Below are positions 3,866 through 6,800 of a DNA stretch of 20,498 nt, one piece after another. Source of the stretch: a virus (Duplodnaviria; Heunggongvirae; Uroviricota; Caudoviricetes); the IMG/VR virus record IMGVR_UViG_2802429224_000006, positions 1 through 20,498 of that record; one strand, written 5' to 3'. Position 1 is the stretch's first letter, and each line of letters starts with the position of its first letter. The position numbers were made by a program.

Positions 3866-6800
3866 ACCCGCTCCAGAGCGAGATAGGTAGTTTTTTGGCA
3901 CTGACACATTTTATGTGGGGCGTTTTTCCTGACTCCTTACCTCGCCCTGTACTGTAATGAGTGATATCGGTTGCAGTACCAGTGCTGTTTTTTACGCCAC
4001 CGGAATGGTGCATTATTGGTAGAGATTTGCAATGTCTCTGGCAGGGGCCGGTGATGCATCATCCCGATGTTGTAAACATCACCCAAAATAACGTTGAGAT
4101 TAATCTCGTACTAAGCAAAACCTGGAAATACATCCTTAACCGCCGCACCAGGCGGTTTTTTTTATTCTGAATTCCCAAAAAAAAGAAAACACGGACACTG
4201 ATAATGTCCGTGCGGCAATGCCATGTAAGTCAGCGATGAATATGGCGCAAAAAAAGCGCGGCTGTCGGATTAACGCCGCGGGACAAAGTCCGTGAAGAAG
4301 AATAAGCATCGGTCTCCTCCGGGAGACGAGTTGATATTACTAAGCTTTAAAAATGGTTTAAATCCCCGGATTAACCTTAATTTTCGATAAGTCTTATTTC
4401 ATTTCTTTGCGCCACATCTGGCGCGCATCAAATAACGCCACGCAAAGGGCATCTGCGGACGCCGGTGCTTTTGACGGGGTGTTTTTTTACGGGCCGCTGG
4501 TGGCCCTTTTTTATTTACAGGAGAAAAAAGTATGTCTGAACCCTTATCCGGTTCCGGCACGGCTGCGGCGCTGGGTGGCGCGACGGTATTCGGGTTGTTT
4601 ACCGGGACGGATTTCGGGATTGTGTTTGGCGCGTTCGCCGGGGCGTTATTTGTGGCAACGATGCCGCAGGCGCTTTCAGCCTGGCGTGTGGTGGCACATT
4701 TTCTGGTGTCGTTTATTGTCGGCGTGCTGGGAGCGCGTGTGCTGTCAGCCTGGATTGCATCAAAAACAGGGTATGACGGTACATCAGCAGATGCGCTTTG
4801 TGCGGTGCTGGTCTCGGTGGTGTCGGTGAAGATTCTCTCGTTCATCCACCAGCAGGATATCGCATCACTGGTGTCCGGTGTGTTCTCCCGCCTGCGGGGT
4901 GGAGGAGGCGGCAATGTTAAGTAACCTTCCCGGATTACTGAATGTGGTGTTATGCACGGTTATCGTGCTGACGCTCTTTTTTTATCGTCGCCGTGATTCC
5001 AGACATAAACCGCTGATGTCATGGCTGGCCTGGCTGCTGATGCTGCTGTATGCCTTTGCGCCCCTCAGCTATCTGTGTGGTCGCCCGTTAGCAACGGGCT
5101 GGCTGGAAGTGTTTTTTAACCTGCTGTTCTGCGTGCTGGTGATACGCGCACGCGGGAACGTCACAAAAATCTTTCCATTGTTGAGGTGAATATGTCGGGT
5201 AAATTCAGATTTAGTCGTCGCAGCGAAAAGAATCTGGAGGGCGTTAAACCACAGCTGGTTGCTGTCGTTCGCCGTGCGCTGGAGCTGACGGAGGTTGATT
5301 TCGGTATTACGGAAGGGCTGCGCACGAAAGAACGCCAGAAACAGCTGGTCGCGGAAGGGAAAAGCCAGACCATGAACAGCCGCCACCTGACCGGTGATGC
5401 GGTGGATGTTGTTGCCTGGGTTGGCAGCCAGGTGTCATGGGACTGGCCTCTGTACGAGAAAATCGCGCAGGCATTTAAGCAGGCTGCCGCAGAGCTGGGA
5501 ACTGCCATCGAATGGGGCGGGGACTGGAAAACACTGAAAGACGGGCCTCACTTTCAGTTGAAACGCTGATAACCAGGTGTGTTATGAGCAGAAAACACTG
5601 GACACACAGAATGCCGCGAACGGCGGCGAAATGGGCACTGGTAGCGATACTGGTGCCTTTTTTTCTGGTGGGATGCGTCAGTCTGGATAAGGCGCGCCAG
5701 CTTTTCGATACAGCTTCTCAGGTCTGTGAAATTGTCGACGATGTTCGGCTGTGTATGCAGAACTGATCGCCTGTAATAGCAGAATATTTTGCTGAAAAAT
5801 GAAGGGTGCGCCAGCGTCCGGAAAGCATGAAATTCTGCTGCGTGTGCCAATTTTATCTTATTCATTCTAAATCTTGCCGAATCAAGATGAACTTTGATCA
5901 ACTGCCTGGCGGCAAGGGGCATTAAAACAGGAGAAAATTATGTGGAAACCTACAGGTGACAAGTTAATCACCGCGTTGATTGACGGCAAGCCACAATACT
6001 TACGCATTAAAATGAGTGGTCAGCATGCTCGTTTGATTCGTGAGTAACAGGCATTACAGCAGCCCTTCAGTGTGAGGGGCTGCGATAATGTTTTTGGTTT
6101 TTGGCTTTTATACCGCCACGGAAAGCAAGAGGGGAAATGTCTGAACCGGATTATGGGGTGATTAGGCATTGCCGTTTCCTGCTGCGATATTTTTAAGTTA
6201 TCGGAAGGTAGTTGTGGAGTTTTTGGTCGGAAGGCATAACAAATTTCCGGGGAAGAGAAAGTATTAGTTTGAAAACTAATGTCCAATTAAACTCTAACAT
6301 GCGTCCCTGTAAACAATAACAAGTAAGCAATCAGAGTCTTTCTAATTTACGGGAGGATACTCCCGTACTTTTTTAAAGGCAACGTGAATTGCAACGTTTG
6401 TGATGTTTACGGGTAAACAGTAACGCTTTTGATATGAATGTTTTTATCTGGTTGCTGTTTTTATTTAGTTAATGTTTATAGGGAATCTTTCAATGAAAAA
6501 AACACTGATTGCGCTGGCAGTGGCAGCTTCCGCTGCGGTATCCGGTTCTGCGATGGCATGGACTGCAAACGGTACGGGTAATTCTGTTGACCTGGGCGGT
6601 ACGCTGACTCCGGTTGAGAAGGTAACTCCGTGGGAAGTAAAAACAAGTGCTGCGGTAACAGGGCTTGATGCTCAGGTTACTCAGGGCCAGACTGTGGTTG
6701 ATGTCGCCGTAAAAAATGCGATTCCGGTGCTGGGCATCCGTACACAGGAAGTTGGTAAATCATTCCCGGCTCAGGCAGGAATCAATCCAGCGATTAGCTA

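Follow-up and report, generated by a model that had tools for sequence, protein, structure and literature searches.

How a phage disrupts the outer membrane of its host when its lysis genes include no recognisable inner-membrane spanin subunit (i-spanin) is the question raised by a short gene cluster in a 20,498-nucleotide stretch of tailed phage DNA (Caudoviricetes; IMG/VR record IMGVR_UViG_2802429224_000006, positions 1 to 20,498), the whole of which is referred to here as the window. Current models of Gram-negative lysis hold two outer-membrane routes, the spanins, either two-component or unimolecular, and the single described disruptin. Positions 4532-5766 of the plus strand contain four tightly packed genes, hol1, hol2, an M15 endolysin gene and a gene for a 60-amino acid lipoprotein. 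A first-pass annotation of the DNA had described this interval as two membrane proteins, an L-Ala-D-Glu peptidase and a short Cys-containing lipoprotein, and all four genes were found where it had placed them. By its gene content the region reads as a phiP27-type lysis cassette, complete and belonging to a late operon. We propose, with a probability of about 0.5, that the lipoprotein serves in lysis at the outer membrane and needs no phage i-spanin to do so.

A constrained lipoprotein with o-spanin features

The precursor consists of MSRKHWTHRMPRTAAKWALVAILVPFFLVGC (signal peptide) followed by VSLDKARQLFDTASQVCEIVDDVRLCMQN (mature part). The 30-residue signal peptide has an unusually long basic n-region and leads into the lipobox L-V-G-C31, with Val, an outer-membrane sorting residue, at position +2. 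The mature part has 30 residues, three Cys, no Pro and a net charge of -2, in agreement with the first-pass annotation, which had named this protein as the sole outer-membrane candidate and described its mature part as short and not proline-rich. An AlphaFold (AF2) model returned one helix over residues 12-59 at low to moderate confidence (pLDDT 68), too simple for a fold search, and is in keeping with the 83 % helix given by Kongari et al. (2018; PMC6139136) for the 30-residue periplasmic part of its phiP27 homolog. The amphipathic moment of the mature part was 1.1 compared with 0.58 ± 0.30 for shuffled sequences, 6 % of which reached or exceeded it. A periplasmic Cys capable of disulfide formation is a near-universal feature of spanins (PMC6139136, section 12), and C48 and C57, which would be able to form disulfides, match it.

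We fetched 85 loci carrying the lipoprotein together with loci of divergent homologs, about 100 in all (numbered with the prefix L where single loci are named). Among 42 distinct alleles third codon positions were the most variable and pN/pS was 0.18 in the lipoprotein frame, compared with 0.91 in the antisense frame of the same phase, and the open reading frame (ORF) was intact in 84 of the 86 scorable sequences (85 loci and the window). The lipoprotein is thus a real gene under purifying selection. The lipobox, C48 and C57 were invariant in 25 diverse homologs, whereas Met10 was not conserved, which identifies the 60-residue precursor as the real product; a dual start at Met1 and Met10 was rejected for the same reason. 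A 122-amino acid antisense ORF at 5554-5922 was not considered a gene, having no family match and the pN/pS of 0.91.

A word-indexed search recovered 139 homologs, and those with an organism name were all from Enterobacterales, mostly Escherichia coli. Remote homology was sought in Pfam (E ≤ 10), NCBIfam and PHROGs, and 1.84 billion cluster representatives were searched with a profile. The lipoprotein belongs to phrog_7528 (E 3e-36, function unassigned) and had no Pfam match even at the permissive threshold. Only 26 representatives matched the profile at E ≤ 0.001, and the credible ones were all small Cys-containing lipoproteins of the same kind, none of which links to a named family. A divergent subfamily shows the pattern C..EKARNWFGVAADVCDTVKKIKDRC.

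The protein therefore presents several properties of an outer-membrane spanin subunit (o-spanin), namely a lipobox with its sorting residue, a position beside the endolysin gene in a lysis cassette and periplasmic Cys residues, and lacks two others, a cognate i-spanin gene nearby and a periplasmic length sufficient to bridge both membranes. It fell outside the lambda Rz1 family (Pfam Rz1), with no match and no Pro in its mature part. Nor did it qualify as a unimolecular spanin (u-spanin) of the T1 gp11 type, as its sole hydrophobic segment, residues 13-37, is that of the signal peptide and its C-terminus is polar. With no inner-membrane subunit and a predicted helix far shorter than the periplasm it cannot, on its sequence, be a classical spanin.

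The lipoprotein occupies the position of Rz/Rz1

The absence of an embedded or adjacent Rz-like gene, already remarked on in the first-pass annotation, was found to hold for the window, for ± 8 kb around some 90 related loci and for a complete prophage of E. coli W. The same annotation had regarded a canonical Rz/Rz1 pair elsewhere in the prophage as fatal to its proposal, and none came to light in the window, at these loci or in the E. coli W prophage. A six-frame lipobox scan of the whole window gave no other lipoprotein candidate, the plus strand between 5766 and 6472 contains no ORF with a transmembrane domain (TMD), the same scan of the E. coli W prophage gave no second o-spanin or u-spanin candidate, and across 90 loci the only other recurrent lipoprotein was Bor. 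No ORF with a TMD adjoins the lipoprotein gene in 39 of the 85 loci.

Phages that do carry Rz/Rz1 place it at the junctions where relatives of the window have the lipoprotein. In phages mEp390 and HK639 the order hol1-hol2-endolysin is followed by an i-spanin/o-spanin pair (Rz-Rz1; gp51/gp52 and gp70/gp71, respectively), and in Klebsiella phage Seifer the genes after hol1-hol2 and the endolysin encode an unnamed membrane protein and a protein annotated as an o-spanin. Downstream of Rz1 mEp390 has gp53, and three loci (L093, L102, L103) have a gp53-like gene immediately after that for the lipoprotein. A second type of junction is found in the Shiga toxin (Stx) phage GER2 (L105, MG710528), in which S and R are followed by a phrog_4493-type TMD ORF ending in IRWW* and then by Rz; in many relatives the endolysin gene is followed by an ORF of the same kind ending in VRWW* and then by the lipoprotein gene, a junction equivalent to that at GER2 Rz. 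GER2 also contains a lipoprotein homolog (L105 3501-3668), a pseudogene with four in-frame stops some 760 bp downstream of the intact Rz. The lipoprotein and Rz/Rz1 thus appear to be interchangeable in position at these two kinds of junction, the lipoprotein having decayed where Rz/Rz1 is present.

The published spanin partner in phiP27

The cassette is about 93 % identical at the DNA level to the lysis region L28-L31 of the Stx2e phage phiP27 (NC_003356), which has the same four genes, and the cassette region had matches in 553 of 5,426 complete E. coli genomes, including a Rac-like prophage of E. coli W. The lipoprotein is also present in phages phiP27, phiSTEC1575-Stx2k and vB_Apl-pPE4, and its presence in these functional phages supports a role in lysis. 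The lysis region of the last of these (L092; PP818812, 'Actinobacillus phage vB_Apl-pPE4') is about 92 % DNA-identical to E. coli prophage cassettes, for which reason its recorded Actinobacillus host looks doubtful.

Kongari et al. list phiP27 as a 'separated' two-component spanin, with an i-spanin at 20348-20542 and an o-spanin at 20706-20861 whose combined periplasmic length, 62 residues, is the shortest of their two-component set (PMC6139136). Their phiP27 o-spanin, listed as a singleton, shares 92 % identity with the window lipoprotein; they called it as 51 residues from an internal Met where the true length is 60. The published i-spanin (NC_003356 20348-20542; L001 4264-4458, plus strand) is a 64-amino acid ORF with a TTG start that had no PHROG family match. 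It lies antisense to a conserved gene of 90 amino acids (L001 4248-4520, minus strand; phrog_36812, E 5e-20), inside an insertion of about 480 bp between the endolysin and lipoprotein genes, the whole of which is missing from the window, and a related insertion (L040) retains the minus-strand gene with the plus-strand ORF broken. For these reasons we regard the published i-spanin as spurious and rejected it as a partner of the lipoprotein.

In the literature we found no experimental work on the lipoprotein beyond this catalogue. Neither the cassette nor the listing of its lipoprotein among the o-spanins is new. The novelty lies in comparative evidence for an artefact in place of the published partner, and in the recognition of a whole family of cassettes in which a constrained lipoprotein stands alone where other phages encode their spanins.

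The lipoprotein travels with diverse lysis genes

Across the roughly 100 loci, which come from lambdoid, Rac-like, Mu-like and P27-like phages and include two types of holin and two of endolysin, the lipoprotein gene is the last of a holin-endolysin-lipoprotein cassette. In the 85 loci the cassette opens with hol1-hol2. An M15 endolysin gene is followed directly by the lipoprotein gene, as in the window, in 39 of the 85 loci, and in a further 14 the two are separated by insertions of 91-975 bp, making 53 with an M15 enzyme; in 31 a GH108/PG_binding_3 endolysin replaces it, mostly 337-884 bp before the lipoprotein. The gap between endolysin and lipoprotein genes in relatives is 3-10 nt or an ATGA overlap. 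No insertion between the two in the 85 loci holds an Rz-like gene; they contain assorted small genes, the commonest being for a TMD protein of 57-60 amino acids (phrog_4493/1115), which stops 1 nt short of the lipoprotein start.

The holins vary as well. The order hol1-hol2-M15-lipoprotein is seen in L093, and a Mu-like phage (L096) has hol1-hol2-GH108-lipoprotein, with an overlap at ATGA. Without hol1 and hol2, a lambda-S-type holin (PF05106) is combined with an M15 or M15-like endolysin and the lipoprotein in L094 and L098, and with a GH108 endolysin and the lipoprotein in L100 and L103. The packaging and structural modules downstream fall into at least nine unrelated groups. These changes of holin, endolysin and downstream module indicate that the gene travels with lysis genes in general and not with one holin, endolysin or type of virion.

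Two side observations were made at these loci. Small TMD proteins of phrog_4493/1115 (50-60 amino acids, ending in ...RWW) and phrog_4906 (44 amino acids) are encoded directly 5′ of either the lipoprotein or canonical Rz, for instance at L017 7662-7996, L021 7826-7999 and, in GER2, L105 2130-2282, and are absent from the window. By analogy with LambdaSo Lcc6, a small extra membrane factor needed for lysis (bioRxiv 10.1101/2024.01.23.576932), they may represent an unrecognised accessory lysis factor. At L073 a Mu-like transposase gene (2848-4854, minus strand) has been inserted and only the 3′ end of a GH108 endolysin gene is left (6082-6261), which indicates that a Mu-type element has inserted itself into another prophage's lysis cassette.

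Holins and endolysin

Hol1 matched Phage_holin_8 (PF16931; E 6e-23, 81.7 bits against a gathering score of 26.4) and the holin family phrog_198 (E 3e-42), and Hol2 matched Phage_holin_3_7 (PF05449; E 4e-22, 78.5 bits against 25.4) and the holin family phrog_217 (E 1e-38). Both are small proteins with several TMDs at the head of the cassette, and in the relatives examined hol1 always occurred together with hol2. A hydropathy scan placed the TMDs of Hol2 at residues 1-25, 33-51 and 59-80; by the positive-inside rule its basic loop (RRRDSRHK) and basic C-terminus would fit the class I holin topology, N-out and C-in. The first-pass annotation had correctly noted that the 91-residue protein overlaps the 3′ end of the holin gene and had suggested for it either an antiholin or an envelope-disrupting function. 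The former is retained in the form of a holin/antiholin pair, which is the better reading of hol1 and hol2, and the latter found no support. Hol1 and Hol2 were also rejected as an inner-membrane partner or envelope disruptor, given that the lipoprotein occurs with a lambda-S-type holin and the pair occurs with Rz/Rz1.

The coding start of the endolysin is the ATG at 5192, 6 nt past the first possible start, a GTG at 5186. The protein matched Peptidase_M15_4 (PF13539; 47 bits against a cutoff of 25) and the endolysin family phrog_465 (E 1e-75), and its zinc triad can be read as H65-x6-D72 ... H120. The best matches in PDB were an L-Ala-D-Glu endopeptidase (8q2g, 5e-43), Serratia ChiX (5opz, 1e-42) and the T5 endolysin (2mxz, 2e-23), all of them M15 L-Ala-D-Glu peptidases. 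The earlier description of the enzyme as a T5-type L-Ala-D-Glu peptidase stands as to the type of peptidase, whereas in sequence it is nearer to ChiX, of the Serratia ChiWXYZ secretion/lysis cassette, than to the more distant EndoT5. In Serratia ChiX is accompanied by the spanin-like ChiY and ChiZ, while the enzyme in the window is trailed by a lone lipoprotein. No signal peptide, TMD or other hydrophobic segment was detected in the endolysin by hydropathy scan.

Table 1 Features of the lysis cassette and its leader in the window
Feature	Position	Strand	Description
Terminator-like hairpin	4138-4164		Upstream of hol1; consensus scan only
Terminator-like hairpin and T-run	4491-4514	+	Just 5′ of the hol1 ribosome binding site; consensus scan only
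hol1	4532-4924	+	130 amino acids, several TMDs, ribosome binding site AGGAG; Phage_holin_8 family, putative holin or antiholin
hol2	4914-5189	+	91 amino acids, three TMDs; Phage_holin_3_7 family; 11-nt overlap with hol1
Endolysin	5192-5569	+	125 amino acids, predicted cytoplasmic; M15 zinc L-alanyl-D-glutamate peptidase
Lipoprotein precursor	5584-5766	+	60 amino acids, ribosome binding site AGGTG, 14 nt past the endolysin stop; spanin position
Terminator-like RNA hairpin	5633-5665	+	11-bp stem, GCGA loop, then U7; within codons of the signal-peptide h-region

A conserved signal peptide and an embedded hairpin

Between subfamilies, comparing the window protein with the divergent homolog P0121, residue counts give about 84 % identity in the signal peptide and about 38 % in the mature part, which is the reverse of what is usual for exported proteins. 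The conserved portion includes the long basic n-region, MxRKHWTHRxPR (stretches 5584-5676 and 5677-5766 compared; P0121, P0125, P0126). The part of the gene encoding the h-region also contains a terminator-like hairpin (Table 1) with a dG of -24.3 kcal/mol (z -4.4), and none of 200 shuffled sequences folded as well. Synonymous diversity reaches its minimum for the gene at codons 16-26. The hairpin was found in most relatives and divergent homologs and is absent from the Mu-like locus L096; in L100 it has two double changes, although the formal count of covarying pairs was not above that of shuffled controls.

The two hairpins upstream of hol1 are probably part of a Q-antiterminated late leader, and in the related prophage of E. 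coli A36 an antiterminator Q gene lies upstream. An embedded terminator that only Q-modified polymerase can pass would fit a toxic late protein, an idea we offer as a lead and not as a finding. The conserved basic signal peptide may be a second active part of the system, either as a membrane peptide released on processing, as with the bacteriocin release proteins (BRPs), or through a hairpin that limits synthesis to Q-antiterminated transcripts.

Proposed role of the lipoprotein

In the sequence of events that we envisage, Hol1 and Hol2 would act as a holin/antiholin pair to permeabilise the inner membrane at a set time, and the endolysin would escape through the holes and cut the L-Ala-D-Glu bond of the peptidoglycan stem peptide, steps that are suggested by family membership and the lack of an export signal on the enzyme. 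The lipoprotein would be exported, receive its lipid at Cys31 and reach the outer membrane, the residue at +2 being Val and not Asp, and its helical, disulfide-capable mature part would deal with the outer membrane, doing the job of Rz/Rz1 without a phage inner-membrane subunit. We infer both the role in outer-membrane disruption and the mode of action. A helix of 30 residues measures about 4-5 nm and cannot bridge the periplasm, which argues against a classical periplasm-spanning fusion machine, and the occurrence of the gene beside unrelated holins and endolysins makes a specific phage partner unlikely. The lipoprotein would more likely destabilise the outer membrane from its inner leaflet after loss of the wall, alone or via a host envelope factor.

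The likeness to lambda Rz/Rz1 lies in a distal gene for an outer-membrane lipoprotein, conserved periplasmic Cys and the same slot beside the same holin pair. Lambda Rz1 differs in having 10 Pro in 40 residues, against none in the mature part here, which is predicted to be helical, and Rz/Rz1-type spanins in general have an i-spanin gene, a length matched to the periplasm and no sequence similarity to the lipoprotein. With the disruptin it would share the replacement of spanins in the outer-membrane step by a single small helical protein. Disruptin phiKT gp28 is a cationic peptide, made in the cytoplasm and not exported, of a phage without any lipoprotein gene (bioRxiv 10.1101/515445), whereas the window protein is a predicted Sec/Lsp-exported lipoprotein with negative net charge and conserved Cys, and so is not a disruptin in that sense. 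Its closest functional analogies may be the colicin lysis proteins and entericidin B. These have precursors of about 45-52 amino acids and mature lipoproteins of about 21-33. They need no inner-membrane partner to permeabilise the envelope, the quasi-lysis caused by colicin lysis proteins being OmpLA (PldA)-dependent, and they resemble the window protein in size and lipoprotein architecture, while homology is not detectable and the window gene belongs to a phage late operon. The signal peptide of pCloDF13 BRP is active in its own right once cleaved, which is reminiscent of the unusually conserved signal peptide in this family. A bolder proposal, which we hold only tentatively and at rather less than even odds, is that the lipoprotein represents, next to spanins and disruptins, a third class of factor with which phages breach the outer membrane, a lipid-anchored, disulfide-capable helix with no spanning partner, compatible with any holin and endolysin, and with its signal peptide as a possible second active part.

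Several points weigh against an outer-membrane lysis role. The link between the lipoprotein and lysis is a comparative one, many of the carriers are prophages of uncertain viability, and the argument from mutual exclusivity draws on few genomes (mEp390, HK639, Seifer, GER2). In its controls the lipobox scan recovered the o-spanins of HK639 and Seifer and missed that of mEp390 (2 of 3). Neither Pfam (E ≤ 10) nor NCBIfam revealed sequence similarity to any spanin family, the best NCBIfam match, NF037950 spanin2, being below threshold (E 0.016, 15.5 bits against a cutoff of 100), and the colicin lysis proteins (Pfam Lysis_col) gave no match at E ≤ 10. Counted from the sequences, the net charge of the mature part varies from -2 in the window to about +3 in the divergent subfamily, and this lack of conservation argues against a simple cationic-peptide mechanism. 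Lambda Rz/Rz1 is dispensable under shaking without divalent cations, so that a cassette could persist without an outer-membrane factor and the lipoprotein could act otherwise.

Alternative explanations

The lipoprotein could be the o-spanin of a true two-component spanin whose inner-membrane subunit has gone unrecognised, be it a very small phage protein with a TMD, as Kongari et al. suggested for phiP27, a protein of the host, or the precursor of the lipoprotein itself, left unprocessed in the inner membrane and pairing with the mature form in the outer membrane. The published classification of phiP27 is in favour of this, as are the TMD protein encoded 1 nt before the lipoprotein start in about half of the related loci, the two conserved Cys, which could form intermolecular disulfides, and the conservation of the signal peptide over the mature part, which would fit a role for a membrane-embedded N-terminus. 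We nevertheless consider it improbable. The phiP27 'i-spanin' lies antisense to a conserved gene and is broken in one relative and absent from the window. The phrog_4493 ORF, rejected as a mini i-spanin for the window, is missing here, from phiP27 and from 39 of the 85 loci, and its position upstream of canonical Rz in GER2 shows that it is no substitute for Rz. With unrelated holins and endolysins accompanying the lipoprotein none of them can be its specific partner, and 30 + 30 residues cannot span an intact periplasm. A similarly small chance is given to an accessory lipoprotein unrelated to envelope disruption, whether concerned with receptor masking and superinfection exclusion, like T5 Llp and Cor, or a moron like Bor. 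Small phage lipoproteins with exclusion functions are known, and the lysis-terminase interval is a known hot spot for morons, holding a K88/F4 subunit gene in the window and Bor, toxin and KilA-N genes elsewhere. Against it, the 3-14 nt or overlap after the endolysin gene leaves no room for a separate promoter; no sigma-70-like site was found upstream of the lipoprotein gene, and its location downstream of the late-leader terminators, together with its own terminator-like hairpin, makes expression in the lysogen unlikely. A receptor blocker would also be expected to co-vary with virion modules, whereas at least nine unrelated ones accompany the lipoprotein, and its decay in the Rz-bearing GER2 is equally at odds with an accessory function.

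A regulator acting from the periplasmic side on lysis timing, in the manner of an antiholin, or on the endolysin, would account for the location within the lysis cassette, and the conserved basic n-region could couple export to membrane energisation; LambdaSo Lcc6 offers a precedent for an extra membrane factor. A protein that binds one particular holin or enzyme is hard to square with three unrelated holin/endolysin combinations, two holin-family proteins are already encoded in the cassette, and Rz/Rz1 is replaced in position and not supplemented, so that we judge a regulator quite unlikely. Least probable of all, with only a slim chance, is a functionless remnant in phages that simply lack an outer-membrane step. 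Phages without an identifiable spanin do make up 91 of 677 (about 13 %) of those with Gram-negative hosts (PMC6139136, Table 1), and some alleles are frameshifted in the T-run, as in E. coli A36 (L002). Against this stand the strong purifying selection, the nearly universal intactness of the ORF and the retention of lipobox and Cys across subfamilies that have diverged so far in the mature part.

Matches to the cassette region were found in roughly a tenth of complete E. coli genomes, and Stx2e and Stx2k phages carry the cassette. Such prophages also depend on this lysis pathway to release Shiga toxin and LT-II. If the lipoprotein does act alone, it would constitute a new and very small outer-membrane-active module of 30 residues, the phiP27 entry in the spanin catalogue would need correction, and annotation rules that demand a spanin partner gene would need to be revised.

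Neighbouring genes in the window

Upstream of the cassette the plus strand encodes tRNA-Thr(UGU) and tRNA-Gly(UCC) (3722-3875). Just upstream of these, at 529-3368 on the same strand, are genes for a 546-amino acid N6 DNA methyltransferase (PF02384; phrog_13671) and a 379-amino acid protein resembling type I specificity subunits (PF01420), with no restriction subunit within the window. Downstream, a 35-amino acid ORF (MWKPTGDKLITALIDGKPQYLRIKMSGQHARLIRE; 5940-6047, plus strand) with a strong ribosome binding site matched phrog_8025 (E 8e-22, function unassigned) and is followed by a terminator-like hairpin at 6059-6083. Between the lysis cassette and the terminase Nu1 gene lies an orphan gene for a K88/F4-family fimbrial subunit with a signal peptide (6472-7275, plus strand; PF02432, E 2e-46), with a terminator-like hairpin at 7303-7330. 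The window has no usher or chaperone gene to accompany it, and the gene, which is moron-like, is also found in E. coli A36 and at L006.

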